Shown here piece by piece: positions 1 to 39,812 of a DNA stretch of 64,000 nt. The notes below the pieces were generated by a model. The model was given only the letters and a program-made list of their open reading frames with translations. It was not told where the DNA came from and did not search any database. Positions within the stretch are counted from its first letter, which is position 1, and each line of letters starts with the position of its first letter. A program made the translations under genes and the position numbers. This DNA is from a candidate division LCP-89 bacterium B3_LCP (GTDB lineage Bacteria > Electryoneota > B3-LCP): contig NJBN01000001.1 in the NCBI GenBank assembly GCA_005223185.1, forward strand, positions 309,210 to 373,209, given 5' to 3'.

Positions 1-182
1 TCGGTTATTCGGATAGTCCTGAGGGAAATGACATTAATAGTTCAGGAACACAACCGAGAATCCTTGGTGACTATTTCCAATTACTTTTTGGATTCGGTGC
101 GAAAGCTGAAAAGACGTTTATTCTGCCTCCACCATTTCCACCACCGGATCAGGCCAATGAATTCACCGGGGCTGTTTCCACA

Positions 183-827
183 ATGGGCGGTTTACCGGAT
201 ATTGAGATTGACACCAGTAAAACTAACGTGCTGGCGAATCCACCCGGTCAACCTGATGGGACGCTGATAGACATTGATTGGTTCACTATCAGCGACGAAG
301 CACAATCCATATACATATACAATTCCATCACGGCGGATACGAATGCAACCAGTCAATACGTAAATGGAGATACTTCTGCCGTTCAGGAAAATGCGACACC
401 CGTTCAGTGCGTTGTTATGCCCCAGAACGATGGATTACTGGAAGTCTATCGTGTTGAGAATATCACCAAGGGGATAGTCGGCGAGGTTATCAGTTTCAAT
501 TCGACTTCAATTACAGTTTCGCAGCCATACGGCGCACCCTGGGATTCTACGGATTTCGTAGAGGTTGACTATAAATACGATCCTGTTTCCGAGTATCATT
601 TAAAACCGGTTGCCTCACGCTATGAAAATCAGCAGAGGACTTTAGTAACTGTAGAATTGACCCCAGGTGTCTTCATCTCCACGTATCAATATTCGCTGGG
701 GTATCGCAATGCAATTTTCACCTTCCCACTGTACTTCATGGAGAATGAAAACGGAGAGGTGGAGGATGTATTTAGGGAAATGCTGAACTGGTTCTTCTAT
801 CCCACCATACACTGGATTATCAACTGA
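183..827 (+). CDS. hypothetical protein (no recognisable domain; start uncertain near window edge)
   Basis: 214-aa ORF that ends just before the bidirectional hairpin terminator at 845-880. No motifs recognised. A different-frame ORF (28-267) overlaps the 5' end, so the true start is unclear. Confidence 0.4.
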   Translation: MGGLPDIEIDTSKTNVLANPPGQPDGTLIDIDWFTISDEAQSIYIYNSITADTNATSQYVNGDTSAVQENATPVQCVVMPQNDGLLEVYRVENITKGIVGEVISFNSTSITVSQPYGAPWDSTDFVEVDYKYDPVSEYHLKPVASRYENQQRTLVTVELTPGVFISTYQYSLGYRNAIFTFPLYFMENENGEVEDVFREMLNWFFYPTIHWIIN

Positions 828-844
828 TTTTTGGAATAGAGAAG

Positions 845-880
845 ATGAAAAAGCCGGATCTTAAGTCCGGCTTTTTTTAG
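845..880. terminator. bidirectional rho-independent terminator
   Basis: Hairpin agccgga-tcttaag-tccggct preceded by an A-run and followed by TTTTTTT. It lies between convergent genes ending at 827 (+) and 877 (-). Confidence 0.6.
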
Positions 881-2811
881 TCGAGCTGTCTTAACAGGTC
901 TATGGCTGGTTTATAATCAGGGTATAAAAGAAGGGTTTTCTCAAGTTGTTCTTTCGTTTCGTCTAAGTATCCTAATTTCCCCAGAGCTAAGGCGAAGTTG
1001 TAGTGATATAGAGCCTGGTAAGGGTCCAGTTCGCAGGCAGCGTTGAAGTGGGCTGCGGCTCTCTCCGTTTCACCTGCTTGGGCTCCTTGCAGTCCGATTC
1101 TAAAATAGCATTGAGCTAAGTTGATTACCGCGTCAGTGTAGTCGGGTTTCAATTCGAGAGCACGTTCGTAATGAATTTTCGCTTCGCCCCACTTATTCCG
1201 ATCAGAGAGGATTGCGCCGATGTTGTTGTGGGTTCTTGCATCTAATGGGTTGATTTCCAGCTCTTTCCTGTACAGGCTGTCGGCTTCTTCAAGATCACCC
1301 ATCCTGTAGGCGATAACCCCTAAATTGAGGTGAACCTGCCAATAGGTTGAGTCAGCGTTGAGTGCAGAATGGTATGATTTCCGGGCTTTATCCAAATTGC
1401 CCTTTTCCAGGTGAGCGTTCCCCAAACTGAAATAAGAATGTGCGGAGTTCTCTCTTTCGATGCCTGCAAAGTTTGAGTTCACCAACAGGAAAGCCAGTAT
1501 CAAGGCGATCAACGTTTTTCCCTTTTGCGCGCTCCAGAAAGTAGGTTTCGCCTGGAAAAGGAAGGCAACTACTATCGCACTGAATATGAGCAGAAAAGGT
1601 ATCATGGGGAGGCGAAAGCGTGCGGTTACAAAGAACGCTATAACGCTCAAGCCGTAAACGGGCAGGATCGCCAAAAACCACCCCGGCAATATTTTCTGGC
1701 GCCAGGTTATAATCCATCCAACCAGTCCCAACGGACCTATCACCCAGAACCCCAACATCCTCAATAGCGGCATGATCGGGGTTTCACCTTTAAAGAAATA
1801 GAGATCCCGGTTGTTGCTTACCTCCAGTCCATTCCCGAACGCGTACACCTTTTTAGCCATTAATTTCATCCAGGAAACGGGATTATCCCGTATGAATTCC
1901 AGCCCTTTCTTATAATAAAAACTGCTCACTTCTGAGGGCTTCAGAATGCGACCTTCCGTTTCGTAGGCTAATCTCGAAGTCGCGGGTACATCCCAGTTTG
2001 ATCCCAAACCGGGGAAACTGGAATGCAGACCGTCAGCTTCAACGTTATTACCAATATAAAAGTTGATTCCTCCCTGGTAGGCAACTGGAACAAAGTCACC
2101 GCCCTTTTGGACATTGTGCCAGGTTACCGGGATAATGGGAGTTAGACAGCCAACTATCAATATTAGAGAGCGCAACGCTCTTTTTTGCCACCTAAAATAT
2201 ATGCGTGTGAAAAATATGCCATCAAGCATAAATATCGGCAGGAGAATCAGGGCACTGGGTCTGGTGATTGCAGCCAGACCCAAAATCAAGCCCGGGAAAA
2301 ATGACCACCAAGAATTCATACTTCTTCTGGATAAAGCGTAAGTTAAACAAGCTGATAAAAACAGAAGCAGAAAGAGAGTTTCGACCAATAGTTCCCCGTC
2401 AAAATAGATAAGCAGGCCGTAGGCCGCAACGCCTAAACTGGACAAAACACAAATAGTTCTACTAAGCTTAAGCGACCGCGCCAGTATGTAGGTTATAACG
2501 GCGGTTCCGGTGCCCACGAATATTTGCACTATTCTGGCTGTTAGGTAACTACCTTCGCTGAAGTAGTAAACCAGAGCCAGAAAATAAGGATAAAGGGGTG
2601 CGCGAAAGAATACTCCCTCATGTCCAATTCCCTGGCGGATGATTTCCCGAGCCCAGGCATCGTGGTATTCCGCATCGATTATGGGCGCATCGAAGAAGAC
2701 TGTACTTTTTAGCTGGAGGATATATACCATTCGCAGCAAGAAGGCGATACCGGTAATTATGGTAATGTCTATCCAGATTGGTTTCTTGTCTGATTGAGAA
2801 TTGGGCATCAA
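877..2811 (-). CDS. GT-C fold glycosyltransferase (PMT_2/ArnT-like, GT39/GT83-like) with C-terminal TPR repeats
   Basis: The N-terminal ~480 aa are polytopic membrane (many hydrophobic helices). The DAEYHDAWAREI motif near the N-terminus is typical of PMT_2/ArnT-type transferases that use polyprenyl-phosphate sugars. The C-terminal ~170 aa carry repeated TPR-like signatures (AHSYFSLGNAHLEKGNLDKA, YWQVHLNLGVIAY, THNNIGAIL, YTDAVINLAQCY, ALYHYNFALALGKLG). Confidence 0.7.
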   Translation of the reverse strand: MMPNSQSDKKPIWIDITIITGIAFLLRMVYILQLKSTVFFDAPIIDAEYHDAWAREIIRQGIGHEGVFFRAPLYPYFLALVYYFSEGSYLTARIVQIFVGTGTAVITYILARSLKLSRTICVLSSLGVAAYGLLIYFDGELLVETLFLLLFLSACLTYALSRRSMNSWWSFFPGLILGLAAITRPSALILLPIFMLDGIFFTRIYFRWQKRALRSLILIVGCLTPIIPVTWHNVQKGGDFVPVAYQGGINFYIGNNVEADGLHSSFPGLGSNWDVPATSRLAYETEGRILKPSEVSSFYYKKGLEFIRDNPVSWMKLMAKKVYAFGNGLEVSNNRDLYFFKGETPIMPLLRMLGFWVIGPLGLVGWIITWRQKILPGWFLAILPVYGLSVIAFFVTARFRLPMIPFLLIFSAIVVAFLFQAKPTFWSAQKGKTLIALILAFLLVNSNFAGIERENSAHSYFSLGNAHLEKGNLDKARKSYHSALNADSTYWQVHLNLGVIAYRMGDLEEADSLYRKELEINPLDARTHNNIGAILSDRNKWGEAKIHYERALELKPDYTDAVINLAQCYFRIGLQGAQAGETERAAAHFNAACELDPYQALYHYNFALALGKLGYLDETKEQLEKTLLLYPDYKPAIDLLRQLD

Positions 2812-3723
2812 TCAACCTATTAATATTTTCTTTATCAACGGGATTACATCGGTTATGCGTTCCGGTTGGTTCTCATCAATGATTTCGGAATCGAAATTCC
2901 AGATGAAGGGAACCGAATTGCGGGTGTGCGTTTTTACACTTGAATCTTCGATATTTCCGTGATCTGAAGTGATTATTATCTTGATACCCTCCTCGTTTGC
3001 AAGCGTCAATGTTGAATGAATGAAATCGCTAAGTTGCCTAATTAGGGATAGAATAGCAGATTTATCACCCTTATGTCCCAGGATGTCGGTCATAAAATGC
3101 TCGTAAAGAGTGAAATGTTCCTTTTTTGCTATTCCAACAAGAATATCCGCGGCTTCTTGTGCTGAAAGAATTGGTATATCTCCCCATTTATCACCTAAGC
3201 TTCGGTTGGTAAAATCATGGTAAAGAGCTTCTCTTTTCTCGATCTGTTCTACGGATCGGAATGGCTGTCCGGAGGCTTTAAAAGCATGGCTGGTTACGGA
3301 CAGTCTGCTGAATGGAGTTATGTCTTCCGGGTGGCGGTAGGCATTGGCGAAAGTGGCATTATAACCGTTTCTGGTCAGGTGCACGAAGATACTCTCATTT
3401 TTGAGTAATTCAATCAACTTACGGCTGGGAAAGCCCTGAAGATGTTTACCTACAAGTTTCGGTGCATTGATCCCGGTCAGCAGCGCTGTCTGTCCAGTGG
3501 CGCTCTGGGGTAAGCCTTCTACCCCCAGACAGGCGTCGATGGGGATGTTTGACAAACCGTTGAAGTCAGGTTTGTGGTTTTTGGCAGGCCAGATATCAGG
3601 ATGGTGAAGCAGAGGATTAAGCCGGGGATCATCTTCGCCTATTCCTAATCCATCTATAAAAATCAACAGTATTTTGCGGGAAGCTTTCAGCATATTTAAT
3701 CTGTGTAAATAGTGTGATTTCAT
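2812..3723 (-). CDS. alkaline-phosphatase-superfamily metalloenzyme (ApgM/iPGM-like or phosphodiesterase-like)
   Basis: The N-terminal LLIFIDGLGIG and the C-terminal IIITSDHGN metal-binding motif are characteristic of the alkaline phosphatase core fold (cofactor-independent mutases, phosphodiesterases). It abuts the GT-C gene with no gap. Confidence 0.5.
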   Translation of the reverse strand: MKSHYLHRLNMLKASRKILLIFIDGLGIGEDDPRLNPLLHHPDIWPAKNHKPDFNGLSNIPIDACLGVEGLPQSATGQTALLTGINAPKLVGKHLQGFPSRKLIELLKNESIFVHLTRNGYNATFANAYRHPEDITPFSRLSVTSHAFKASGQPFRSVEQIEKREALYHDFTNRSLGDKWGDIPILSAQEAADILVGIAKKEHFTLYEHFMTDILGHKGDKSAILSLIRQLSDFIHSTLTLANEEGIKIIITSDHGNIEDSSVKTHTRNSVPFIWNFDSEIIDENQPERITDVIPLIKKILIG

Positions 3724-3909
3724 AAAATAATGCTTAATTACTGGAATTCCAAGTCAGTTTTTTCCTGAACTTTACCGTATGGCAGAATTTCAACATGAAA
3801 CTGTCAGTATCCCGCTCACCTTAAGCGTTTTCAGCACGATGCCGGGAAATTAGGCTTGCATAAAGCCCAAGGATTCGGTATATTAAGCAGATATTAATAT
3901 GTTTTAACC

Positions 3910-5037
3910 GTGATTAATTTGATAGAAACACTGCAGATTATAAGCCTGTCGGTTACTTTGATATTCATGCTATTTCTCTGGCTGGGACTTCGTAGAGAGA
4001 GAATCATATCGTCAAGCTGGCGTCCTACAGTTACTGTATTGGTGGCTGCGCGAAATGAAGAGAGGGATCTTCCCGGTTGTTTGGAAAGTCTAAATAAGCA
4101 GGATTACCCGAAAGATTTATGCGAGTTCATCATTATCGATGATGGATCGACGGACGCGACGGGCGAAATAGCTAAGGAATGGTCTGATAAGGATGCACGG
4201 TTCAGAGTGATTCGGCTTGAAGATGAACAGTCCAGATCGTTAGGTCCCAAGAAGAGAGCGCTTACTAAAGGCTTCGATGCGAGTTCCGGGGATGTTATTA
4301 TCTGCACCGATGCCGATAGTCATTTCGGTCTGGGGTGGTTATCGGGAATGATCGCCTGTTTCGATGAAAAAACCACTGCTGTTTGTGGTATGGTTAAGTT
4401 CGATCCATCCCGCAGTTTCTGGGGGAAATTGGCTGCTTTTGAAGGCTTGGTTGACAGCATATTGAATGCAGCAGTTATCGGCATCGGAGGCGCTCTGAGC
4501 TGTTTCGGAGCAAATTTCGCTTACAGGCGGAAGGTATTTAATGATGCGGGCGGATTTGACGTTGGGTCCGGTTCGCTTTCAGGTGATGACGATCTGCTCC
4601 TGCAGAGGATGCGTTCATCAGGAGGGAAGATTCGTTTCTGTGCCAATTCGCAATCAGTGGTAATGACTCAAAGTCCCCAGGATAGAAGATCATATTGGAA
4701 CCGCAAGCGGAGGCATCTATCTGCAGGGAAAAGATACGCATTTCACTGGATAATGCTGGCACTGGTGGTTTTCATAGCCTGTCTTACCACGGATTTACTG
4801 GCAGTTTTATGGTTTGCTGATTATCACTCGAATCTAAATTTTGCATATATGTGGGGGTTTTTCAGTCTTGCACTGTTCATCATATTTATAAGAGGAAAGA
4901 TGATAATGCTGCAGGAAGGTTACTGGATCTGGTCCTTGACAATATCTTTAGTCTTCCCTCTTTACTTTGTCGTTATTCAGCCACTTACCTTGCTTCCCGC
5001 ACCATCATGGAAAGGGCGTTCATCTAAGCATGAATGA
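3910..5037 (+). CDS. family 2 glycosyltransferase, membrane-bound (N-terminal TM plus C-terminal TM bundle)
   Basis: GT2 signature VTVLVAARNEERDLPGCLESL...FIIIDDGSTD and a DxD-like TDAD. A C-terminal polytopic region follows. GTG start at 3910 precedes the first TM helix. Confidence 0.8.
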   Translation: MINLIETLQIISLSVTLIFMLFLWLGLRRERIISSSWRPTVTVLVAARNEERDLPGCLESLNKQDYPKDLCEFIIIDDGSTDATGEIAKEWSDKDARFRVIRLEDEQSRSLGPKKRALTKGFDASSGDVIICTDADSHFGLGWLSGMIACFDEKTTAVCGMVKFDPSRSFWGKLAAFEGLVDSILNAAVIGIGGALSCFGANFAYRRKVFNDAGGFDVGSGSLSGDDDLLLQRMRSSGGKIRFCANSQSVVMTQSPQDRRSYWNRKRRHLSAGKRYAFHWIMLALVVFIACLTTDLLAVLWFADYHSNLNFAYMWGFFSLALFIIFIRGKMIMLQEGYWIWSLTISLVFPLYFVVIQPLTLLPAPSWKGRSSKHE

Positions 5038-6079
5038 TAATACGGTTACACAGGAGCGAGCGACTGATTTTTCACCAGCATTAACGCGAATTGGTGAAAA
5101 AAAAGGTAGATCAAAAGCAGTCCGCAAGCGGATAATCTTCTGGACGAAACTGCTCTTGACGCTTTCAGTGCTAATCCTTTTGATAATAACCATCAAGCCG
5201 CGTGAGATAACCAGCGCCTTCGAAGGGAGCCGCTTTCCTCTGCTGTTAATAAGTTTAGGGCTGGTTATTCCCAATATAGGTCTGCGAGCTATACAGTGGG
5301 GTTATCTTTTGAGGATGGTGAAACCGGAGGTGAAAGTCAGGGAGATACTTAATTCATTATTGGTAGGATCTACCTTTGCGGTCGTCACACCGGGACAATT
5401 AGGGGAATTCGGTCGAGCTTTCTTCATTTCCGGTCGCCCGCGCCTGGAATTGATCGGCATTTCCTTCATCGATAAGATGTACAGTCTGCTGCCTATTATT
5501 TTAAGCGGAAGTTTGGGGTTGCTATTTATGCCGGGGCTGGTTTTTGGCAGTAATTCATATATCTTCATCTCATCGGCGGTTCTTGTGGCGATACTGTGGT
5601 TGATACTTATCTCCATACTGCTGTCGCCGCGCTGGATTCGCGATCTTCTTTATGCGGTAAATGTCATGCTACCCTATCGCGACAAAGTGAAAGTGCTGCT
5701 GAGTGGTCTGGATCCCATCAAAATCAAGCAATCACTCGTTCTGACCGGATTGAGCAGCACTCATTACCTGCTCTATATTTTTCAGTTTTACCTGCTCATA
5801 ATATCCTTTCAACATGTGGGATTATTGGACATGTATCGCGCGGTTTCAGCGATTATCTTTGTCAAGGCTGCGCTGCCAATTTCCATAGGAGGGTTGGGAG
5901 TAGGAGAGACGGCATCAGTAGGTTTTTTGAGGGTTTTCGACGTTCAATTTGCTGCCGCTTTCAATAGTTCCGTTATTCTATTTACCATCAATATCTTATT
6001 TCCTGCTCTAGTGGGAGTTATAATTCTCCTGAAGCTGCGCTTATCTCCAGAGAACGGAAATGGTAAACCAGATGCTTGA
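5030..6079 (+). CDS. flippase-like polytopic membrane protein (UPF0104 / lysyl-PG synthase TM-domain-like)
   Basis: About 8 predicted TM helices, no soluble domain, and a position immediately after a GT2. The most plausible start is ATG at 5030, where ATGAATGA overlaps the stop of the upstream GT2 (translational coupling). The ORF track extends it to 4967. Confidence 0.5.
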   Translation: MNDNTVTQERATDFSPALTRIGEKKGRSKAVRKRIIFWTKLLLTLSVLILLIITIKPREITSAFEGSRFPLLLISLGLVIPNIGLRAIQWGYLLRMVKPEVKVREILNSLLVGSTFAVVTPGQLGEFGRAFFISGRPRLELIGISFIDKMYSLLPIILSGSLGLLFMPGLVFGSNSYIFISSAVLVAILWLILISILLSPRWIRDLLYAVNVMLPYRDKVKVLLSGLDPIKIKQSLVLTGLSSTHYLLYIFQFYLLIISFQHVGLLDMYRAVSAIIFVKAALPISIGGLGVGETASVGFLRVFDVQFAAAFNSSVILFTINILFPALVGVIILLKLRLSPENGNGKPDA

Positions 6080-7259
6080 ACCGTTATGGACAGTATTGTT
6101 AGCTGCTACAGGTCTGATTTACTTTGCCTTTCTGGAAGTGGTCAGAAGGGGATTGGGAAAACTCCGTGATGCTGAAGCTTATCGGGATAAAGCGGATGAG
6201 TATTTAGACGTCAGCGTTATAATTCCCTGCCGAAATGAAGCTGAACACATCGGTCATGCTTTAAATGACCTGATCGAACAAAATTATCCTGCTGATAAAA
6301 TGCAGATAATCGTGGTGAATGATCGTTCTACCGACGACACCGGAAAAGAAGTCAGTGATTATCTGTCCAGGATGCCACAACTTGAATTAGTAGAAATCAA
6401 CTTGTGTCCGGATGGAATCTCCCCTAAGCAGAACGCCCTTGTTGCGGGAATGCAAAAAGCAACCGGTGACATTATAATCACCACTGATGGCGACTGCCGT
6501 TTTCAAAAGGGCTGGGTGAGTGCCTTAGTGAACCAATTTAAAGGTGAAACCGGCGTGGTAACCGGATTAACTGTTTTCGACCGTGGACGTTCTGAACCTT
6601 TCTGGCAGAGGATGCAGCAACTTGATTATCTCTCTCATTCATTTTTCGCTGCCGGCGCCATCGGCGCGGGAATGGCGTTCAACTGTAATGGCAGCAACTT
6701 AGCGCTGCGACGTGAAGTATTCGATGAAGTGGGTGGCTACGGTGATCTTAAAGATGTGTCTGTAAGTGATGATACCGCTTTACTGCAGAGGATCAAACGG
6801 GATACAAAATGGGACATAGCTTTCAGCACGGATCCACAAAACAGAGTACATTCCTGGCCAGAAGAGACGCCTGCTGAAGTATTTAATCAACGGTTGCGCT
6901 GGGCTGCTGGAGGGGTGTCAAGCAATCCCAGAGTGCTGATGTTTGAACTGATTACTTTCATCTTTTTCATGGCGCTGTTCCTGTCTCCCTGGTTATGGCT
7001 GGGAGGGTTGATTTCGGGAAGCTGGGTGGTTTTATTCATTCTGAAGCTATTGCAGGAGTTGCGCGTTATGAGGTTGGGATGGAATATATTCAAAATAAAA
7101 CCGGATATGATATCCTTTTTGGCGATGGAATTGGTTCACATTCCGGCGATCTTGCTATTCAGTATCCTGGGAAATCTGTGGGGCTTCCGGTGGAAAGGAC
7201 AACACTACAAAGGGATTGGAAAAAAGGAAGACGCTCCATCGATGGTATCTGAACGATGA
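6060..7259 (+). CDS. family 2 glycosyltransferase, processive type (QxxRW motif), membrane-bound
   Basis: VSVIIPCRNEAEHIGHAL...IIVVNDRSTDDTG, then TDGD, then a Q-R-L-R-W motif (NQRLRWAAGG), then C-terminal TM helices. Confidence 0.8.
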   Translation: MVNQMLEPLWTVLLAATGLIYFAFLEVVRRGLGKLRDAEAYRDKADEYLDVSVIIPCRNEAEHIGHALNDLIEQNYPADKMQIIVVNDRSTDDTGKEVSDYLSRMPQLELVEINLCPDGISPKQNALVAGMQKATGDIIITTDGDCRFQKGWVSALVNQFKGETGVVTGLTVFDRGRSEPFWQRMQQLDYLSHSFFAAGAIGAGMAFNCNGSNLALRREVFDEVGGYGDLKDVSVSDDTALLQRIKRDTKWDIAFSTDPQNRVHSWPEETPAEVFNQRLRWAAGGVSSNPRVLMFELITFIFFMALFLSPWLWLGGLISGSWVVLFILKLLQELRVMRLGWNIFKIKPDMISFLAMELVHIPAILLFSILGNLWGFRWKGQHYKGIGKKEDAPSMVSER

Positions 7260-8245
7260 TAAGACTCCTGCCCACAGCAAAGATGCTGCAGGTTGCCCGC
7301 TGTCTGTATAAGAACCGGAAGAACGGTGCAGGGATCTATCCTTTTTACGCTTCTCTGAAGGTGACCGATCTGTGCGGCTTTCGATGTTCCTTTTGCAATG
7401 TCTGGCGCAATCCCGCGCCGGACCTGGATACTGAAGGAATTATTAAGGTGCTGCGCAATTTGGGGGATTCTTCCATCGTGTTAACGTCTATAGAAGGCGG
7501 CGAACCACTTCTTCGTAAGGATATCGAAATCATCTTAAAAGAAGCATCACAGCAGCCCTATTACCTTCTATTCACCACCAGCGTCAGGAACTTGCTCGAT
7601 TATCCCTTAGAGACGTACAGTAAATGGATCGATCTATTTCACGTATCAATCGATGAGGGACACGAAAACTTAGAACTGTTCGACATCTTGCCAGAGATTG
7701 TGGATCTACCCTGGATCGTCTGCGTTCAGACTGTCGTGCGGGATTGTGATATGGGATCGATGGCTGAAAAGGTAAAAACCTGTGCTGACAATGGCGCCAA
7801 GATACTAATCATGCCAGCGGTAGAATTGGACGATGCCAAACACAGCTTTCCCGACCCTGCCCGGTTCAGCCGTGAAGTCGCAGATTTGAAGAAACGGTTT
7901 CCCCGTACCGTACTCACGCCACGGCGTTACCTGGATGCAATAAATGGTGAATCGCATTGTTCTGCTGCGTCGATTATAATAGACAGCGATGGAGGTCTGT
8001 TTTATCCCTGTAGAACATTAAATGAGAAGCCGGTCAACCTGACCCAAACCGATCTGATGGGTTATCTGGAATCGCAAGATGCATCAGAGCGCCGTTCCGT
8101 GATGAAAACCTGCGACCGACTCTGCGGCTGGTATCAGTATTTTGCCATAGATTTCTTCACTCAGCCGGGGGAGGTTCTGGAATCGCTGGGACCGTATTGG
8201 GGAGATCTGATCGGTTGGCGTTCAAAGAAAGCGTCTCACGTCTGA
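7256..8245 (+). CDS. radical SAM protein with C-terminal SPASM/twitch-like Cys motifs
   Basis: CxxxCxxC (LCGFRCSFCNVW) at about residue 40, a SAM-binding GGEPLL motif, and C-terminal CSAASIIIDSDGGLFYPC ... CDRLCGW. Its start overlaps the upstream stop as ATGA. Confidence 0.75.
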   Translation: MIRLLPTAKMLQVARCLYKNRKNGAGIYPFYASLKVTDLCGFRCSFCNVWRNPAPDLDTEGIIKVLRNLGDSSIVLTSIEGGEPLLRKDIEIILKEASQQPYYLLFTTSVRNLLDYPLETYSKWIDLFHVSIDEGHENLELFDILPEIVDLPWIVCVQTVVRDCDMGSMAEKVKTCADNGAKILIMPAVELDDAKHSFPDPARFSREVADLKKRFPRTVLTPRRYLDAINGESHCSAASIIIDSDGGLFYPCRTLNEKPVNLTQTDLMGYLESQDASERRSVMKTCDRLCGWYQYFAIDFFTQPGEVLESLGPYWGDLIGWRSKKASHV

Positions 8246-8250
8246 AAATT

Positions 8251-9348
8251 ATGGATAGCTTAGTAGTAGTTATTGGTATTATTTATATTTTCATAGGACT
8301 GATTATATGGAAGGGTTTGGCAATCAGTCCCAAGAAAAGGGGAAAAGAAACGGTAGATTTCGCTTCTTTGATATTATGCGCCAGAAATGAAGAGAAGTGT
8401 TTAGAAGCCTGTCTCGAATCGGTTGAAAAGCTGGATGCTGATCCGGACTGCTTTGAGGTAATTTTAGTGAATGATGCATCTGATGACGCAACCGGCTCAA
8501 TAATGGATCAGTTTGCAGCCAGGTGTGATTACAAAGTGGAGGTAATACATCTTTCACCATTGCGAAGGGATGAACCAGGTGGTAAATGGCGCCCTTTAAA
8601 AGAGGGAGTAAAAGCTGCTTCGGGTGAAGTTATACTCATCACGGATGCCGATGCGATACTTCCGGTGAAATGGGTAGAAGAACACTTGACTATTCTGCAC
8701 GGAAGCGATATTTCAGCAGGTTATGCAATCAACCTCTATGGGAATGTATTTAACCGGATTTTGGGGTTGGATTGGCTGTTCATTCAAAGCGCTGGCGGAT
8801 CGCTGTCCAACTGGGGACGACCTCAATCGGTATTGGGGAAGAATCTGGGGTTTCGCCGTAATGCTTACGAAGATGTTGGTGGTTTGGAGGGGATCGGTTT
8901 CTCCTTGACTGAAGATCAGAGTTTGATGAGAACAGTAGTTGACAACGGCGGTAAAGTACAGTTCTCATCATCCCCTGATATGGCTGTCAGCGTTTGTAGT
9001 ACGCTGGGGGTTGGTGATTATTTAGAAAAGAAGCAACGCTGGGCAACAGGATTTTCTCTTTTAAGAAAGGAAGGAAAAGCCACGGTTTTAGCCGCGCAAT
9101 TACGAAATATTGCCATAATTATAGGTTTATTTACGTGTTTGCCAATTGCTCTATCCATCTGGATTATTACTTCTTTCGTAAACTACCTGGTATTGCGCAG
9201 GATTTTGACAAAATTGGGTGACATGATAGACATAAAGTTATTTATGCTGTGGGAAATTTTCAATACTCTGACGTCTCCTTTGCAGATAGCTCTTCACTTT
9301 GCCAGTCCTAAAGTCGAATGGAAAAAACGGCGACTGTCAAATCGCTGA
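8251..9348 (+). CDS. family 2 glycosyltransferase, membrane-bound (QRW motif)
   Basis: LILCARNEEKCLEACLESV...VILVNDASDDATG, then TDADA, then KKQRWATGF, then C-terminal TM helices. Start chosen at the ATG before the N-terminal TM helix. The ORF track allows 8197, which would overlap the preceding gene by 49 nt. Confidence 0.75.
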   Translation: MDSLVVVIGIIYIFIGLIIWKGLAISPKKRGKETVDFASLILCARNEEKCLEACLESVEKLDADPDCFEVILVNDASDDATGSIMDQFAARCDYKVEVIHLSPLRRDEPGGKWRPLKEGVKAASGEVILITDADAILPVKWVEEHLTILHGSDISAGYAINLYGNVFNRILGLDWLFIQSAGGSLSNWGRPQSVLGKNLGFRRNAYEDVGGLEGIGFSLTEDQSLMRTVVDNGGKVQFSSSPDMAVSVCSTLGVGDYLEKKQRWATGFSLLRKEGKATVLAAQLRNIAIIIGLFTCLPIALSIWIITSFVNYLVLRRILTKLGDMIDIKLFMLWEIFNTLTSPLQIALHFASPKVEWKKRRLSNR

Positions 9349-9379
9349 CTTAATACGCAATAAATGAATCTGAATATAT

Positions 9380-10348
9380 ATGCCCCTGGTCTGTAATTAT
9401 TATTTGACCTATCGCTGCAATGCTCGCTGCACATTCTGCGATTTATGGCAGCACGAAAACAGGGATTTGGCTGATGCTTCTGATGTACTGGATAATCTAA
9501 AAACACTTCGGGCAGCAGGTGTGCGCATCGTAGATTTCACCGGTGGAGAGCCCTTGATGCATCCAGAACTGCCCATGTTTTTACGAGTCGCCCGAAAACA
9601 TGGACTGATGACGACAGTTACCACCAACGGAATCCTCTACCCCAAGTTGGCTGCAGAACTGCACGGTCTCATAAGCATTCTTCATATTTCCATTGACAGC
9701 ATGGATCCCATCGTACACGATAAGCTACGTGGGATTTCCTGTTATGATTTGGCAATCAAATCGGTGGAGACAGCGCTGTCCTCAGGTGAAAAACCCGATT
9801 TGCTCTTCACCGCAGGCAGGGATAACTATAAGGATGTAGTACCACTATCCGGGTACGCCCGCAGTAAAAATTTAGTGCTGATAGTCAATCCCATGTTTGA
9901 GGTAAATGGTGGTGAAGGGGCTTTAGGGCACGATGAGTTAGTGGAGTTAGAGAGACTTTGCCGCAAACCCAATGTGTATTTAAACGGCGGCGTTATAAGG
10001 ATCATGTTGGAAGGTGGCAACAACACGTTGAAACCGCGCTGCCGAGCCGTCTCATCGAGTATAGTGATATCGCCGGATAACGAGTTACTCCTGCCCTGTT
10101 TTCACCGGGCACAGGGTGCAGTATCGATAAATGGAAGTTTGAATCGTGCTCTGGCGAGTGCAGAGCGAATGAAATGGTTGCATCTGCAGGGGCGGGAAGA
10201 TATATGCCGCAATTGTACCATTAACTGTTACTTAGCACCTTCCCTTCCGTACCGCCTGGACCGGTACTTCGCTTCCTTCATCCCCTGGGGGGTTAAATAT
10301 CTATATTACCGTAACTTCCGCCTGAAACCAGCCGAAAGCAACGCATGA
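9380..10348 (+). CDS. radical SAM protein (paralog of 7256-8245) with SPASM/twitch-like C-terminus
   Basis: CxxxCxxC (YRCNARCTFCDLW) at about residue 10, GGEPLM, and C-terminal CRAVSSSIVISPDNELLLPC ... CRNCTINC. It has the same architecture as the other radical SAM gene. Confidence 0.75.
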   Translation: MPLVCNYYLTYRCNARCTFCDLWQHENRDLADASDVLDNLKTLRAAGVRIVDFTGGEPLMHPELPMFLRVARKHGLMTTVTTNGILYPKLAAELHGLISILHISIDSMDPIVHDKLRGISCYDLAIKSVETALSSGEKPDLLFTAGRDNYKDVVPLSGYARSKNLVLIVNPMFEVNGGEGALGHDELVELERLCRKPNVYLNGGVIRIMLEGGNNTLKPRCRAVSSSIVISPDNELLLPCFHRAQGAVSINGSLNRALASAERMKWLHLQGREDICRNCTINCYLAPSLPYRLDRYFASFIPWGVKYLYYRNFRLKPAESNA

Positions 10349-11925
10349 CACCGGTTGATCTTCCTCCTGAAATTTTACCCTTAGTGGTGATGTATCCTGA
10401 AGTACATTATCGCTTTCGCGCTCTTCCCATCAGTAGGTATTTTATCAGGCAGCCTGAAATCATCGCTGATGCTCCCCACAGAATAGAACCAGGTCAGCCC
10501 CTGCCGGTACTGTTAGTGATAAAAGATGCTGATAGATTCCCGGTCCTCCTGCAAGGAGTCAATCTGGATATTCAGGGGAAGGATACCTACTACACTCACC
10601 ATGTGAATTTCGGTCAGGAAATGGTTTCCACGCACTGGTGGCATCACATAGAATGGGTTGATCTTCCCGACGAAGCGCCCTGCGAATGGACAATCACCCC
10701 GACCTGGCGTATTCAGCTTCGGGGTAAATATCGTGCGGTAGGAACGGATAACTTAGCAGGTCTATCGCATAAGCCGCTGCAGGTTTTTCAGGCAAGCGAT
10801 CCGTTGCCTCGCAAAGAAGGCTGGGTTTTCGGGGATTTTCATGTTCATACTGCCTATACTGAAGATCAGATAGAGTTCGGAGCGCCGCTTCCGGCATACC
10901 CGGCTTTGGGAAAAGCCATGGGGTTATCCTTCGTATTCGCGTCAGATCATTCTTACGATTTAGATGACGTGCCGGGTTCTTTCACCGAAGCTGATCCCAA
11001 TCTGATCAGGTTTAAACAGATGCAGAGAGAAATCGTACAACTGAATGCTGAGAAGAGCGGAGAATTTGTATTCATCCCCGGTTACGAACTGAGCGCGGCT
11101 AATTCAAGGGGCAAGAACGTTCATCTTTTGTTAGTTAATCAGAAGGATTTTCTGCCGGGTTCTGGAGATTCGGCAGAACGCTGGCTGCACAGGAAGGCAG
11201 AATTAACCATTTCCGAAGCGCTGGCGCAGATGAAGAAGGAAACTCTGGCTGTGGCTGCTCATCCAAAAATGAAAGCGCCATTATTGGAGAGGCTGCTATT
11301 AGGCAGGGGTCATTGGGGGAAGTCTGATTTGGAACATGAATCACTGTTCGGATTGCAAGTCTGGAACGGCGGCAGCGGTAAGGATTTTCAGAGAGGACTG
11401 AAGATCTGGACAAAAGGACTACTGGAAGGTAAGCGATGGAAACTGTTAGCAGGAAGTGACGCGCACGGAAATTTCAACCGGTATAGACAGGTCGGTATCC
11501 CCATGCTCTACCTGACTGAATCCGATCGACAGTTGTTCGGAAAAGTCCGCACCGGAATACGAATCAGGGAAAGGTTAGATTTAGCCGGAATCATGTCCGC
11601 TCTACGGGAAGACCTAAGTTTAGTAACGGATGGCCCTTTCGCTGAGTTATCCCTTAAGAGAATAAATAACAACTCAATTAGCGTCAATATTGCCGCATCG
11701 AGCAGCTCAGAATTCGGGGAACTGGAAGTGGTTAAACTGTTTTGGGGAGCTGAAGGAGAACCGCAGGAGCGGATTCACCTTTGTCATGAAGATGTAGGTG
11801 GATATGATTTTAGTATAGAAACGGAGATTCCCAAACCGAAGGGCTACGTACGTATAGAGGTACAAACCAACAAAGGATGCCTCTGTTTAACCAACCCGGA
11901 GTTTATCGAGGTTCAGTCACAGTAA
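10345..11925 (+). CDS. PHP-domain metal-dependent phosphoesterase with C-terminal extension
   Basis: FGDFHVHTAYTED ... FASDHSYD ... AAHP ... GSDAHG match the His/Asp metal-ligand pattern of the PHP (polymerase/histidinol phosphatase) fold. The start overlaps the previous stop as ATGA. Confidence 0.6.
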   Translation: MTPVDLPPEILPLVVMYPEVHYRFRALPISRYFIRQPEIIADAPHRIEPGQPLPVLLVIKDADRFPVLLQGVNLDIQGKDTYYTHHVNFGQEMVSTHWWHHIEWVDLPDEAPCEWTITPTWRIQLRGKYRAVGTDNLAGLSHKPLQVFQASDPLPRKEGWVFGDFHVHTAYTEDQIEFGAPLPAYPALGKAMGLSFVFASDHSYDLDDVPGSFTEADPNLIRFKQMQREIVQLNAEKSGEFVFIPGYELSAANSRGKNVHLLLVNQKDFLPGSGDSAERWLHRKAELTISEALAQMKKETLAVAAHPKMKAPLLERLLLGRGHWGKSDLEHESLFGLQVWNGGSGKDFQRGLKIWTKGLLEGKRWKLLAGSDAHGNFNRYRQVGIPMLYLTESDRQLFGKVRTGIRIRERLDLAGIMSALREDLSLVTDGPFAELSLKRINNNSISVNIAASSSSEFGELEVVKLFWGAEGEPQERIHLCHEDVGGYDFSIETEIPKPKGYVRIEVQTNKGCLCLTNPEFIEVQSQ

Positions 11926-12421
11926 CTTTACTCTGCACCACCCATGCACCCCGGTAACCTCGTTTGACCGCCACCTGACGCAGCTTGTTCGCTTCGGTGC
12001 GCGTTAAGCAATCGCCAATACGGATCTTATAAATTGGTGAATCGAATATCAAGTAAACATTTTGGTCGAATTCGATTAAAGCTTTCTCTTCCACCGAACG
12101 TGCTTCGAATTCAACGTTTGTAGTGAAGAGTTGCACGCGGTATCCCGAAACTTCTACGGTTTCAAATGATACAGCAGTATCCCTCTCGCTTTCATTTATA
12201 GAGGCAGACGTCGAAGGTTTTGACTGGAGTTCCGATGGTGGCAGTGTGATGGTTTCATCATCTGGAAACTCAAGCGGATCGAAGCTCTCATCCTGAGGGA
12301 CGCGATTTATATCCTGTGGTGGAGATTCTTCCAATGTGGGTGGTGGAGTTGGTGCGCATCCGGCTTGCAGTAAGATTACTGCTAAGATGAGGAGGAGAGA
12401 TATTGAGTTTATTGCTTTCAT
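11903..12421 (-). CDS. SPOR-domain lipoprotein (peptidoglycan-binding)
   Basis: Signal peptide with lipobox LLQAGC, a Pro/Ser-rich linker, and a C-terminal SPOR-like fold (YRVQLFTT...EANKLRQVAVKRGYRGAWVV). Confidence 0.6.
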   Translation of the reverse strand: MKAINSISLLLILAVILLQAGCAPTPPPTLEESPPQDINRVPQDESFDPLEFPDDETITLPPSELQSKPSTSASINESERDTAVSFETVEVSGYRVQLFTTNVEFEARSVEEKALIEFDQNVYLIFDSPIYKIRIGDCLTRTEANKLRQVAVKRGYRGAWVVQSKVTVTEPR

Positions 12422-12450
12422 TTCAACTCTGGAATTTCTTTAAACCTTAT

Positions 12451-13233
12451 CTATATAACTTCATAAGCTTCTTTTAGTATCCATCCTCGCTTGCCGTCAG
12501 CCAGCCTGATCTCAGACCATTGGGCAACTTCCCTGAGAATTTCCATCTTTACACCTTCATGCAGGGCGAACAGCTTGGTAGCCTCAGCTTCTGGTGCGCT
12601 GCGGATTTCAACGTCCTTTATCATCACAATTGCTTCGGTGAGATTGTCCTGGTAGATTTTCTGTTGAACGAAGAAGGCCCCTGAAAGGACGAACACGGCG
12701 CCGAAAAATAGGAATCCTGTCAGCAATATTTTTCGCCAGCGAATTCTACGCACAGAATGTAATGCGATGAGACATACAGCTACCAGCCATTCAGTTAATA
12801 TGAACAATATTGACCATTCCTTCACCGATAACATAGAAGCAGCTTTGTTGAATAGAGTAATTAAGAAGAAGCGCGGCATCGGCTCAATGCGGTCGAAAAT
12901 GCGCATGTTGGCTAATTTCAGGTTAACGTTCAAGTCCGGATCGTTTCCTAAGTAGCGGCGAGCTCTTTCATAGTTCAAGATGGTATGCCCGTATTCTCCC
13001 TGCTTGTAATAACAGTTACCTAAGTTATAGAGGATTTCACCGTTGATGAATCCTCCAGCGATGATATCCTCATAAACAGTAGCGGCGGTATTGTAGTCAT
13101 TTTCACGATAGCTCTCTTCAGCTTCCGCATAGGCTATGTCCAAGCCGTGGGTTTGCGCTTTCAGGCTGAGAATGAAGATACACAAAAAGAAAAACAGGGA
13201 TAGAATGACGGCTAATCCTCTTCGCACAATCAC
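12451..13233 (-). CDS. batE: BatE-like protein (TPR plus TM plus C-terminal bacterial SH3 domain)
   Basis: Two TPR units (YNTAATVYEDI..., YNLGNCYYKQGEYGHTILNYERA), two TM helices, and a C-terminal SH3b-like segment (KRGWILKEAYEVI). It is the last gene of the Bat operon. Confidence 0.65.
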   Translation of the reverse strand: MIVRRGLAVILSLFFFLCIFILSLKAQTHGLDIAYAEAEESYRENDYNTAATVYEDIIAGGFINGEILYNLGNCYYKQGEYGHTILNYERARRYLGNDPDLNVNLKLANMRIFDRIEPMPRFFLITLFNKAASMLSVKEWSILFILTEWLVAVCLIALHSVRRIRWRKILLTGFLFFGAVFVLSGAFFVQQKIYQDNLTEAIVMIKDVEIRSAPEAEATKLFALHEGVKMEILREVAQWSEIRLADGKRGWILKEAYEVI

Positions 13234-15140
13234 AGTTTGTTCCCCCAGGTTTTTTCAATGCGATCCAAAACTATGTCAACCCGTTTCAATAATCTTCTTA
13301 GAACATCTTGATCTGTAACTTCCATAGCGAAACGCGCTGCATTGCATTCGTTGAAAATATCGTTTAGTGTCGTCATGATATCTTCCGGGACGTCGCGCTT
13401 TTTCAATTCTTTTAGCACATCATCTTCCATCAGCCCCGAAGCAGGAATAGCGAGTTTAGTGCTGAGGAAGTTCAGCAAAGTGTTGTGGATAGCTCCATAG
13501 GTTGCAGAGGCATTTGTGTCAGACGTTCTCTTCACCAGGGATTTTAACTTATCTTTCGATTTATGATAAATCCTGTGCTGTTGGCGCCGAACCTGAAGTG
13601 TGGGAGCGCCCAGCAAGCGTGCAGCCCACCATAAAATAACAATAATAAGCGGTGGAAGGGCAACGCCAACCCAATAAGCAAACGGCAGGTTTTGAGCAGA
13701 CCCGACCGCATACAAACGACCCGGAGTTTTCAGGTAACGTACATCCTTTGCCAGGAGTTTCACTTCTTCGCGGGATATTCCTGAAGGAGAGCCGTAATCA
13801 CCATCACCTGAACGCGTAACGGAGATTTCAAAGCCTCTTTCTTTTATAGTCTGGTAAGTTCCAGAGGACGGATTGAAGTAAGCAAAATTAATGGAGGGGA
13901 TAGCGCTTTTCCCCGGAATACGCGGTATAAGGACGTATTCGAAAGTCTTGGATCCGAAGATTTTGGCGCCAGATTTATTTATCTTAATAGATTCCTTCGG
14001 TTCGTATGCTTCGAAATCTGGTGGTACTGAAAAATCGGGCTGCGGTAAAAGCTTGATGTTTCCGGTGCCATTGAAGCGAACTGACATGGTGATCGCTTCA
14101 TTGGTGCTGACCTCGTCTCGGTCAATTTTGACTTCCATACTAAAATTACCGACGGCTCCCGAAAAATTACGGGGTTTACCCTCATCCGGTAGAGGTAGAA
14201 CAGTCAGTTTCAAGGGGTCGGTTTGGATGAAACGCTCTTCGGTTCTGTAACGGCTGAAAGGGCTGTCGAACATCATATCGAAGGGATCCTGGCGCCTTCT
14301 TGATTGCCGCTGCACCTGTACCTGGCAGGTGACTTCTAATGGATCGATGATCATTTCGCCCGGATGCGTGGAAAAGAGCGCTACTCGTCTGATTACTGCT
14401 TTTTTATAGTGTCTCCCCCCGATAACTTCGTCCTGAACAGCGGGTTGTTTAGACGAATCAAACTCTTCAGTCCAGAAACCCGGTGTAGCGGGGAGATGGC
14501 TGATTTCGTAAGCATTTACCGAGACACGTGTGTAAATAATATATGTCAGGATTACCTGTTCATTCTGGAAGATACGGTTCTTATCGGCTGTAACTCTGAC
14601 GAACAGTTCCGATGATTCCTTATCTGTGGTTTGGGGTAGAGGAGTGGTTCTTTTCGCGCTTCCTGGTGTTGTGGTTACAGTTCGACTTCCTACCTGTAGG
14701 AAAATCGGTTCTGTACTATAGATCTTCCCTTTATGAGTCAACCGTACGCTTTCGATTGTCAGCGTACCAGTACGCTTTGGTTTAAGGACGTATGACCAGG
14801 ACTTGATCAGAGAATAGTTGGTGTTGATAATCTGAAAGGTACTCGATTCGTTAGGACCGGAGATTATGCGGAAATCAGACAGTTCCGGCAGTTTGGGGTC
14901 GGATACCCTGGATACTGAGCCTTCCACCTGAAGCGTGAGTGTGAAGGTATCGGTGACGTCCAGCGCAGTACGATCGACAACAGCGGTAAAGGTAATGTCC
15001 GCGGCACAAGTTATACCTACCAGCAGAGATAGAAGGACAGCGACGGAGATGAATATCATCAGACGTTTATCAACTGTCCGATATGAAACAGATCTGCTAT
15101 TAATTGATTCTATCATTAACTCTGTTGTTTTACTTACCAA
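13230..15140 (-). CDS. batD: BatD-like protein (signal peptide, C-terminal TM plus cytoplasmic tail)
   Basis: 636 aa, an operon position between BatC and BatE, an internal signal peptide (MIFISVAVLLSLLVGITCAA, possible start at about 15059) and a TM helix near residue 500. The 4-nt overlap with batE fits coupling. Confidence 0.65.
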   Translation of the reverse strand: MVSKTTELMIESINSRSVSYRTVDKRLMIFISVAVLLSLLVGITCAADITFTAVVDRTALDVTDTFTLTLQVEGSVSRVSDPKLPELSDFRIISGPNESSTFQIINTNYSLIKSWSYVLKPKRTGTLTIESVRLTHKGKIYSTEPIFLQVGSRTVTTTPGSAKRTTPLPQTTDKESSELFVRVTADKNRIFQNEQVILTYIIYTRVSVNAYEISHLPATPGFWTEEFDSSKQPAVQDEVIGGRHYKKAVIRRVALFSTHPGEMIIDPLEVTCQVQVQRQSRRRQDPFDMMFDSPFSRYRTEERFIQTDPLKLTVLPLPDEGKPRNFSGAVGNFSMEVKIDRDEVSTNEAITMSVRFNGTGNIKLLPQPDFSVPPDFEAYEPKESIKINKSGAKIFGSKTFEYVLIPRIPGKSAIPSINFAYFNPSSGTYQTIKERGFEISVTRSGDGDYGSPSGISREEVKLLAKDVRYLKTPGRLYAVGSAQNLPFAYWVGVALPPLIIVILWWAARLLGAPTLQVRRQQHRIYHKSKDKLKSLVKRTSDTNASATYGAIHNTLLNFLSTKLAIPASGLMEDDVLKELKKRDVPEDIMTTLNDIFNECNAARFAMEVTDQDVLRRLLKRVDIVLDRIEKTWGNKL

Positions 15141-19763: not shown

Positions 19764-19774
19764 ATGAATTATCT

Positions 19775-37636: not shown

Positions 37637-37789
37637 TTTTCTCTCCTTGTTAATTTGATATTTTTCCTTTTCGATCTTGCATATCGATGTGATTTGTATT
37701 ATAATAACCACGACCTGAATTTCAAAATGATAAATTGTACCTTAATGGGCAATTGATAGGCATTTCAGACACAATCCCGTATCTCCAGC

Positions 37790-39733: not shown

Positions 39734-39806
39734 GGGGCTGTAGCTCAGCTGGGAGAGCGATACGTTCGCAACGTATAGGTCGGCGGTTCGATCCCGCTCA
39801 GCTCCA
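39734..39806 (+). tRNA. tRNA-Ala (anticodon CGC)
   Basis: Cloverleaf folds by hand. Acceptor ggggctg/cagctcc includes the G3:U70 Ala identity pair. D-arm gctc-agctggg-agagc. Anticodon stem atacg/cgtat with loop ttCGCaa. T-arm ggcgg-ttcgatc-ccgct. Discriminator A. CCA is not encoded. Confidence 0.9.
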
Positions 39807-39812
39807 CATTTT

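Follow-up and report, generated by a model that had tools for sequence, protein, structure and literature searches.

A conserved operon of glycosyltransferases, a flippase-like protein, radical SAM enzymes and a PHP-fold hydrolase in candidate division LCP-89 that may assemble a membrane glycolipid

The HexSDF system of Clostridioides difficile makes aminohexosyl-hexosyl-diradylglycerol (PMC10128005), and the GpgSDF system of Pseudomonas aeruginosa, whose soluble enzymes are predicted to be cytoplasmic, makes glucosaminyl-phosphatidylglycerol (PMC12713373). In the hopanoid pathway, the family-2 glycosyltransferase (GT2) HpnI adds GlcNAc to a lipid alcohol, HpnK deacetylates the product, and the radical SAM (rSAM) enzyme HpnJ then ring-contracts the sugar to a cyclitol ether; for the rSAM enzyme Cds of Sulfolobus acidocaldarius, a contraction of lipid-linked glucose that yields calditol has been proposed (PMC13459092). 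Here we analyse a locus at positions 877-11925 of a 64-kb stretch of DNA (the window) from the candidate division LCP-89 bacterium B3_LCP, and compare it with these systems. Its rSAM1, rSAM2 and PHP-fold proteins match entries of the B3_LCP assembly, on a contig of 636 kb, at 100% identity. The locus is a conserved and undescribed one for a membrane glycoconjugate, as a first-pass annotation of the sequence had proposed. Its closest known logic is the synthase-deacetylase-flippase scheme of HexSDF and GpgSDF, followed by hopanoid side-chain synthesis (HpnI/K/J/L) and calditol synthesis. It is quite possible, if still short of probable, that its plus-strand operon assembles a membrane-anchored glycolipid, or another short lipid-linked glycan, which is moved to the outer leaflet.

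The gene content of the locus, established from the open reading frame (ORF) list and domain scans, agrees with the earlier ORF map. Seven genes form the plus-strand operon (3910-11925):
3910..5037, plus strand: GT2a, membrane-embedded family-2 glycosyltransferase, 375 aa
5030..6079, plus strand: MprF-like/UPF0104 flippase-like polytopic membrane protein, 349 aa from the ATG at 5030 (the listed ORF starts at 4967)
6060..7259, plus strand: GT2b, membrane-embedded GT2/GT21-like glycosyltransferase, 399 aa
7256..8245, plus strand: rSAM1, radical SAM protein with a twitch-like C-terminal cysteine motif, 329 aa
8251..9348, plus strand: GT2c, membrane-embedded GT2, 365 aa from the ATG at 8251 (the listed ORF starts at TTG 8197)
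9380..10348, plus strand: rSAM2, radical SAM protein with a twitch-like C-terminal cysteine motif, 322 aa
10345..11925, plus strand: PHP-fold metal-dependent hydrolase flanked by N- and C-terminal beta-sandwich domains, 526 aa, the signature gene of the module

The GT2a and flippase-like genes meet in a ATGAATGA overlap and the flippase-like and GT2b genes overlap by 20 nt, ATGA overlaps join GT2b to rSAM1 and rSAM2 to the PHP gene, and the remaining junctions are gaps of 5 nt (rSAM1/GT2c) and 31 nt (GT2c/rSAM2). The translational coupling claimed for this unit is therefore real. On the minus strand lies a second unit of two genes, first an alkaline-phosphatase-fold (AP-fold) enzyme and then a GT-C glycosyltransferase with TPR repeats (GT-C/TPR). 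The two units had been described as convergent; they are divergent, and share an intergenic region of 186 bp (3724-3909).

To place the operon in context, approximately 170 related loci were compared, comprising contigs of close and distant homologs and two profile-seeded sets, of 80 genome loci (rSAM2 profile) and 80 metagenome loci (PHP profile). The complete operon recurs in L003, L004, L008, L009, L091 and L092, with partial copies in L007 and L089, and sub-modules of it are found in dozens of other contigs, confirming that gene order is conserved in related genomes. As a control, a GT2 of the same subfamily was present within 10 kb in only 1 of the 69 rSAM2-seeded loci (mostly Bacteroidota) that have no adjacent GT2 or PHP gene. 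The arrangement is not a product of chance. A literature search returned no described module of GT2, twitch-type rSAM and PHP protein, and no relevant work on KSB1 or LCP-89 lipids.

Same-strand genes upstream of the PHP gene were then counted in those PHP-seeded loci (63) whose upstream sequence reaches 1.5 kb or more:
GT2: 49/63 loci
CE4 deacetylase: 24/63 loci
flippase-like protein: 20/63 loci
rSAM2: 15/63 loci
rSAM1: 4/63 loci

Most frequent were the following architectures:
GT2-GT2-PHP: 12 loci
GT2-flippase-like-GT2-CE4-GT2-PHP: 10 loci, the commonest long form, equal to the window operon minus its rSAM genes
(DUF3108-)GT2-rSAM2-PHP: 8 loci

GT2 and rSAM genes occur together in a minority of loci, the core usually being without rSAMs. 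In several of the long-form loci, best-hit labels show that the positional order GT2a/GT2b/GT2c is kept. The existence of this rSAM-less architecture with the same GT2 order shows that the rSAM genes are optional, lineage-specific inserts into an older core of GT2, CE4, flippase-like and PHP genes. A cytoplasmic CE4 gene, whose orthologs have no signal peptide, lies between rSAM1 and GT2c in L003 (8250-8867), L004 (8199-8855), L008 (8231-8842), L009 (8038-8637), L007, L089, L091 and L092. By tblastn, no CE4 homolog was found anywhere in the 64-kb window, which has cleanly lost the gene at the rSAM1/GT2c junction (8245-8251). Elsewhere, the assembly GCA_900174595.1 (FWPV01) carries two copies of the DUF3108-GT2-rSAM2-PHP module (L005 and L142), and in L142 a third, very divergent rSAM (27 bits to rSAM2) follows a GT2 pair.

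As first annotated, the three GT2s are membrane-embedded paralogs, with pairwise identities of 27-31%. In each, a single hydrophobic segment lies at the N-terminus and two or three lie at the C-terminus (three in GT2a), which is the topology of lipid glycosyltransferases and not of channel-forming synthases. All three match PF00535 (94, 87.5 and 68.9 bits for GT2a, GT2b and GT2c, respectively) and pass the threshold of the GT21 family PF13506, Glyco_transf_21 (46.5, 68.3 and 40 bits). Each also carries a DxD motif, namely TDAD at residue 133 in GT2a, TDGD at residue 142 in GT2b and TDAD in GT2c. Two of the proteins had been credited with processive-type QxxRW/QRW motifs. Only that of GT2b is canonical (QRLRW, residue 277); GT2c has KKQRW and GT2a has RKRRH at this place, and (Q/R)xxRW is found also in non-processive GT21 lipid glycosyltransferases. 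By sequence, the closest PDB entries to GT2b are PcManGT (6yv7) and a ceramide glucosyltransferase (26qf, aligned over residues 20-308). Matches of the GT2s to GtrB (5ekp) and DPMS (5mlz) do not extend past the first ~120-140 catalytic-domain residues (E ~1e-6), and all NCBIfam equivalog matches (PgaC, HpnI, HpnB, MftF, CruG, NodC, AglG and ArnC) fall far under cut-off. Judged by these comparisons, the GT2s resemble lipid enzymes of the GT21/ceramide-glucosyltransferase type rather than polyprenyl-phosphate enzymes of the GtrB/DPMS type.

The flippase-like protein has approximately eight hydrophobic segments and matches PF03706 (LPG_synthase_TM), the MprF flippase family, with 84.8 bits (cut-off 33.4); TIGR00374 scores 30.6 bits, under its cut-off. 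The earlier description as a flippase-like polytopic protein holds, but the type is MprF/UPF0104 and not GtrA.

Both rSAM proteins score above cut-off for PF04055 (39.4 bits for rSAM1, 82 bits for rSAM2), and their CxxxCxxC cluster motif is invariant (C40/C44/C47 in rSAM1, C13/C17/C20 in rSAM2). Further invariant cysteines are present towards the C-terminus, at C235, C252, C286 and C290 in the rSAM1 family (21 members) and at C221, C240, C276, C279 and C283 in the rSAM2 family, and the two sets align with each other. At E <= 0.01, Pfam detected the radical SAM core only (plus Fer4_12 in rSAM2), with no SPASM match and no B12-binding domain in either protein. The two had been called paralogs with SPASM/twitch-like C-termini. 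BLASTP aligns them at 28% identity over 109 residues only, whereas their family profiles display full-length homology (hhalign probability 99.6, E 9e-25, 262 columns). By this profile alignment, which includes the C-terminal cysteines, rSAM1 and rSAM2 are distant paralogs with a twitch-like auxiliary region, which may bind one or two auxiliary [4Fe-4S] clusters.

In NCBIfam, both are matched best by the uncharacterised TIGR03961 (PTO1314 family, cut-off 306), which scores 58.7 bits with rSAM1, in its N-terminal part only, and 87.7 bits with rSAM2, over nearly its full length. By these scores, neither protein belongs to any characterised family. Anaerobic sulfatase maturase, PqqE, MoaA, viperin, BlsE, HpnH, Tes, NirJ and MftC were each considered and rejected, all scoring far under the family cut-offs (HpnH, for example, at 31-39 bits against 225). 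A structure search with the AlphaFold2 (AF2) model of rSAM2 (pLDDT 87) returned BlsE, MoaA, SuiB, anSME, viperin, AbmM and SkfB as neighbours. BlsE, a cytosylglucuronate decarboxylase, is also the best PDB match by sequence. The small rSAMs BlsE, viperin and MoaA are the nearest to rSAM2 among solved proteins (E 7e-12 by sequence; Foldseek E 7e-13, TM 0.63) and have a partial TIM barrel in common with it; the last of them also has a C-terminal auxiliary-cluster region. Identity is nevertheless only 14-20%, the model scores are low (BlsE 52 against 400, viperin 69 against 180 and MoaA 63 against 284 bits), and the substrates of these enzymes are unrelated to the membrane context here. For rSAM1, PDB sequence matches were marginal only.

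The two rSAM families also differ in their distribution. Among the 1134 homologs of rSAM1, some at 50-55% identity come from metagenome-assembled genomes (MAGs) of Thermoplasmata archaea, and from Zixibacteria and Delongbacteria; the presence of rSAM1 in Thermoplasmata (L169 8001-8993; P0275, P0278, P0282 and P0338) suggests inter-domain transfer of the enzyme. In the Thermoplasmata archaeon MAG at L169, the rSAM1 homolog has a 1021-aa GxGYxYP protein as its neighbour and lacks a GT2, a context that gives no clue to its role. Homologs of rSAM2 in cultured Bacteroidota (Marivirga, Thermonema, Hymenobacter and others) show only loose synteny with accD, with neither GT2 nor PHP. In these solitary loci (L013-L085, among them L022 of Marivirga tractuosa and L047 of Hymenobacter arizonensis; also L002 of Thermonema lapsum), accD is often found within a few kb of the gene, whereas the surrounding 10 kb hold neither a GT2 nor a PHP partner.

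The PHP protein has a PHP barrel fold with the metal ligands HxH ... E ... H ... H ... DxH. It has no Pfam match, and in NCBIfam it falls beside the CehA/McbA metallohydrolases, at 72.4 bits against a cut-off of 80. Its family comprises 525 clusters at 50% identity (E <= 1e-30), and where an organism is named among its best 120 matches it is always uncultured (KSB1, Latescibacteria, Zhuqueibacterota, or MAGs labelled "Bacteroidetes bacterium" or "bacterium"). The fold and ligands bear out the PHP part of the original call of a PHP phosphoesterase; its phosphoester part is a guess.

How, then, does this operon relate to the described systems? HexSDF and GpgSDF join a glycosyltransferase for lipids to a deacetylase and a free-standing MprF-like/UPF0104 protein (PF03706/COG0392). 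The common GT2-flippase-like-GT2-CE4-GT2-PHP form of the module has a counterpart of each, its GT2s being putative lipid glycosyltransferases; HexD, too, carries the annotation of a polysaccharide deacetylase. The differences are several: the glycosyltransferases here are membrane-embedded, GT2/GT21-like and up to three in number, whereas HexS (GT28-like) and GpgS (GT4) are non-homologous to them; a constant PHP-fold partner is present that neither HexSDF nor GpgSDF has; and the LCP-89 lineage carries two rSAMs, with the window itself lacking a deacetylase.

The hopanoid genes offer the clearest described case of an rSAM interleaved with a lipid GT2, and likewise combine GT2, deacetylase and rSAM. 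HpnL is an MprF-like (PF03706-family) membrane protein encoded alongside HpnI/K/J. HpnK is, however, YdjC-like, where the deacetylase of our related loci is a CE4 enzyme, and HpnJ is a larger, B12-type rSAM, where those described here are small and twitch-type. Cds, compared by described function alone, is similar in that an rSAM is proposed to turn a hexose on a membrane lipid into a carbocyclic head group, and differs in being an archaeal enzyme that acts on tetraether lipids. HpnI/K/J and Cds are precedents enough to make the first-pass statement that interleaved rSAMs form part of no described pathway too strong. The cluster is conserved, and unusual for the addition of two uncharacterised rSAMs and an uncharacterised metal hydrolase to a familiar synthase/deacetylase/flippase scheme; it is less exotic than first thought, because rSAM-assisted remodelling of lipid sugars and synthase-deacetylase-flippase operons are both already known.

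We propose that the plus-strand operon would work as follows. Assembly would take place at the cytoplasmic side of the inner membrane; the soluble enzymes, having no signal peptides or hydrophobic segments, are cytoplasmic. The three GT21-like integral-membrane GT2s would each add a sugar to an acceptor that we infer to be a lipid, at least one of these sugars probably being an N-acetylhexosamine. In the ancestral cluster, the cytoplasmic CE4 enzyme, now gone from the window, would N-deacetylate this N-acetylhexosamine. The MprF/UPF0104-like membrane protein would translocate the product to the outer leaflet, and the PHP hydrolase, as the most constant partner of the GT2s, may cut a phosphoester bond or one like it, so as to ready the acceptor or to trim the product. 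Finally, the LCP-89 lineage has gained its two twitch-type rSAMs, one after GT2b and one after GT2c, which may tailor the lipid-linked sugars by hydrogen-atom abstraction. Epimerisation, oxidation, dehydration, decarboxylation and ring contraction are all candidate outcomes, and are not distinguishable from one another. Besides the conservation of the operon, the GT21-like sequences and topology of the GT2s, the MprF-type protein, the CE4 orthologs without signal peptide and the rSAM precedents described above, two further observations count for this glycolipid proposal: gaps of at most 31 nt leave no room for a precursor peptide inside the operon, and the closest structures to rSAM2 include the sugar- or nucleotide-modifying enzymes BlsE, viperin, MoaA and AbmM.

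Several points weigh against it. Neither the window nor the related loci that were looked at yielded acyltransferase, squalene-hopene cyclase, carotenoid or ceramide genes (at 17-64 kb, 20 of the 30 window ORFs of at least 200 aa were scanned). The glycosyltransferase family is not that of HexS or GpgS, as set out above, and the absence of the deacetylase from the window means that an amino sugar is not assured. CehA and McbA are carbamate hydrolases, not phosphoesterases, and the role given to the PHP protein is a guess. In cultured Cytophagales and Rhodothermales, rSAM2 homologs (42-47% identity) stand alone; the rSAM2 family is therefore not tied to GT2 and PHP genes, and may act on a soluble substrate. 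Peptidoglycan-related neighbours (SPOR, SLT/LysM and Mur ligase) occur in three lineages, making a cell-wall target possible.

The strongest alternative takes the minus-strand pair into account, and we give here its genes together with the regulatory elements that flank the two units:
2812..3723, minus strand: soluble alkaline-phosphatase-superfamily metalloenzyme, 303 aa, first gene of the pair
877..2811, minus strand: GT-C-like polytopic glycosyltransferase with C-terminal TPR repeats, 644 aa, likelier start ATG 2808
848..876, minus strand: intrinsic-terminator-like hairpin, 11-bp stem with 5 G-C pairs, AAAAAGCCGGA...TCCGGCTTTTT
3856..3884, plus strand: promoter-like element TTGCAT-N17-TATATT upstream of GT2a, conserved in relatives

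The domain calls for this pair, and its position abutting the operon, are as the first-pass annotation stated. The AP-fold protein matches PF01676 (Metalloenzyme) with 47.1 bits (cut-off 24.3), shows weak matches to cofactor-independent phosphoglycerate mutase and phosphopentomutase, and has no hydrophobic segment. The GT-C/TPR protein has approximately 11 hydrophobic segments between residues 14 and 451, an acidic DAPIIDAEYH motif in its first loop and Pfam TPR families at E 1e-22; PF02366 (PMT) scores 19.4 bits, under the cut-off of 22.7, and the orthologs in L003 and L004 carry PF13231 (PMT_2). The hairpin, a strong one, follows the GT-C stop codon directly and ends the two-gene unit. Just past it, a 214-aa ORF (183-827, plus strand) has no Pfam or NCBIfam match. 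Aligning the shared intergenic region of the window with those of L003, L004, L008 and L009 gave a mean column identity of 45%, with the two hexamers of the promoter-like element, both kept, as the main conserved blocks. A sigma-70 consensus scan gave as many hits as expected from shuffled sequence, none of them in the shared intergenic region, missing this element because its first hexamer matches at 3 of 6 positions only. An Rfam search of positions 1-12600 found no riboswitch or other RNA element.

Three-component periplasmic glycosylation consists of a GtrB/CsbB-type GT2, a GtrA flippase and a GT-C enzyme (GtrC/YfhO/ArnT), and TPR-bearing GT-C O-mannosyltransferases are of the TMTC type. 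On this pattern, the GT2s of the operon would make polyprenyl-phosphate sugars or a lipid-linked oligosaccharide, which would be flipped and then transferred by the GT-C/TPR protein to periplasmic proteins or envelope glycans, with the AP-fold enzyme and the rSAMs as accessory modifiers. We consider this unlikely, although a GT2, a flippase-like protein and a TPR-bearing GT-C do stand side by side in the window. The divergent GT-C/TPR and AP-fold pair is kept next to the operon in L003, L004, L008 and L009, where the AP-fold ortholog is again paired with the GT-C gene, and the GT2s show weak matches to the archaeal dolichyl-phosphate enzymes AglG (33-45 bits) and AglJ (21 bits, GT2b). In L170, from a distant lineage, a PMT_2/TPR gene lies 4 kb from rSAM1-CE4-GT2-rSAM2-PHP, translationally coupled to a gene for a 281-aa PF02811 PHP protein (928-3547, minus strand). 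This PHP protein stands where the AP-fold protein would be, as a non-orthologous phosphoesterase partner, and the pairing hints that this GT-C needs some phosphoesterase partner.

Outside these four closest relatives and L170, however, no homolog of the GT-C N-domain was found near the module in any other locus, including ~85 PHP-seeded ones and L092, where the operon is complete but is preceded by genes for superoxide dismutase and restriction-modification. Downstream, the SPOR gene and the Bat operon are likewise common to the close relatives; GT-C synteny among them may therefore reflect kinship alone, and in any case reflects it as much as function. Moreover, GtrB/ArnC/DPMS-type models score 17-31 bits against cut-offs of 529 (ArnC) and similar, no GtrA-family flippase is present, and the GT2s have a GT21-type (Q/R)xxRW region and a C-terminal transmembrane bundle. 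The polyprenyl-phosphate logic first suggested for the combination of GT2, flippase and GT-C is thus not borne out, and a functional link between the GT-C/AP-fold pair and the GT2 operon is no more than plausible.

A second alternative, which we judge distinctly improbable, is that the GT2s are processive synthases of a secreted GlcNAc oligo- or polysaccharide, similar to PgaC/PgaB or NodC/NodB, which is deacetylated by CE4 and modified by the rSAMs. The best NCBIfam match of GT2b and GT2c is in fact PgaC/IcaA (96 and 55 bits), NodC scores 18-42 bits, and GT2b carries the QRLRW motif. Relatives encode a CE4 deacetylase, NodB being a cytoplasmic CE4 enzyme, and peptidoglycan-related neighbours are found in several lineages. 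These scores nonetheless lie far under the cut-offs (422 for PgaC, 550 for NodC), and three separate small GT2s with 3-4 hydrophobic segments each are unlike a channel-forming synthase. No PgaA/PgaD, BcsB/C, PilZ, Wza or other export partner was found in any locus, nor was a NodA-like acyltransferase.

It is less likely again that the operon encodes a divergent hopanoid or carotenoid side-chain pathway, in which functional counterparts of HpnI/K/J/L or CruG glycosylate a polycyclic or polyene lipid, the sugar ring then being contracted or otherwise altered. The set of GT2, deacetylase, rSAM and flippase-like protein matches hpnI-K-J-L, and the GT2s score 35-88 bits with HpnI (TIGR03472), 46-84 bits with HpnB (TIGR03469) and 31-61 bits with CruG. 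The respective equivalog cut-offs are 310, 379 and 600, and no HpnL (TIGR03476), HpnJ or HpnK model is among the NCBIfam matches listed (for rSAM2, the best 25 of 59). The rSAMs, at ~325 aa, show no B12-binding domain in Pfam at E <= 0.01. Hopanoid core genes are absent nearby, and neither squalene-hopene cyclase nor carotenoid genes were seen among the scanned proteins of the window (20 of the 30 ORFs of at least 200 aa at 17-64 kb) or among the Pfam matches tabulated for related loci.

That the rSAMs are peptide or cofactor maturases (sactipeptide-like, or as mycofactocin MftC with the GT2 MftF), the product of which the GT2s glycosylate, is hardly credible: the MftF model does score 52-83 bits on the GT2s, the rSAMs match SPASM peptide-maturase models weakly, and SuiB, SkfB and anSME are among the structural neighbours, but the operon offers no room for a precursor gene, the upstream intergenic region holds only three small ORFs of 20-37 aa, no RRE/PqqD domain precedes CxxxCxxC motifs that start at residue 13 (rSAM2) and 40 (rSAM1), no protease or ABC exporter is present, and most versions of the module lack an rSAM altogether.

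Around the locus, further features of the window were recorded. A SPOR-domain gene (11903-12421, minus strand) overlaps the PHP gene by 23 nt at its 3' end; elsewhere, genes for an SLT/LysM lytic transglycosylase and a Mur ligase flank the module (L005 14240-16282; L087 12693-14762; L110 7083-8489). Directly downstream lies a Bat-type aerotolerance operon (12451-20779, minus strand), syntenic in close relatives, which encodes an SH3/TPR protein, BatD, a BatC-like TPR protein, two VWA BatA/B proteins, a DUF58 protein and a MoxR ATPase. The BatC-like protein (15134-15874, minus strand) ends in a low-complexity tract of ~70 residues that are nearly all Q, D or E. A 1676-aa Peptidase_C25 protein with a FlgD_ig C-terminus (21067-26097, plus strand) and Por_Secre_tail sorting domains in two proteins (33187-35277 and 35423-37711, minus strand) indicate a type IX secretion system; in L170, a C25 peptidase gene lies directly upstream of that for rSAM1. 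A tRNA-Ala(CGC) gene (39734-39807, plus strand) is followed by that for a large, Alu-domain bacterial signal recognition particle (SRP) RNA (39869-40135, plus strand; RF01854, 165.9 bits), just upstream of dnaX.

A bolder extension of the glycolipid proposal, which we put forward as a long shot, is that rSAM1 and rSAM2 represent a new class of small, B12-independent, twitch-type rSAMs that remodel a lipid-attached hexose or hexosamine, for example through ring contraction to a cyclitol or through inversion or removal of a carbon substituent, as part of a head-group chemistry of the FCB group, with rSAM1 shared with Thermoplasmata by horizontal transfer. If so, uncultured FCB-group bacteria (LCP-89, Zixibacteria, KSB1 and Latescibacterota) would possess a kind of head group chemistry for which the cyclitol ethers of hopanoids and the calditol lipids of archaea are the only examples known to date.

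Should the glycolipid proposal itself be correct, a large group of uncultured sediment bacteria would make an undescribed family of membrane glycolipids, with radical-altered sugars in some lineages, and these lipids would be candidates for new environmental biomarkers. Two families of more than 1000 sequences each would join the short list of lipid-modifying radical SAM enzymes. The culturable Cytophagales and Rhodothermales hosts could serve to find the substrate of the rSAM2 family. Operons occur naturally with zero, one or two rSAMs and with or without the deacetylase, a series that provides ready constructs from which the function of each gene could be read as a mass shift.

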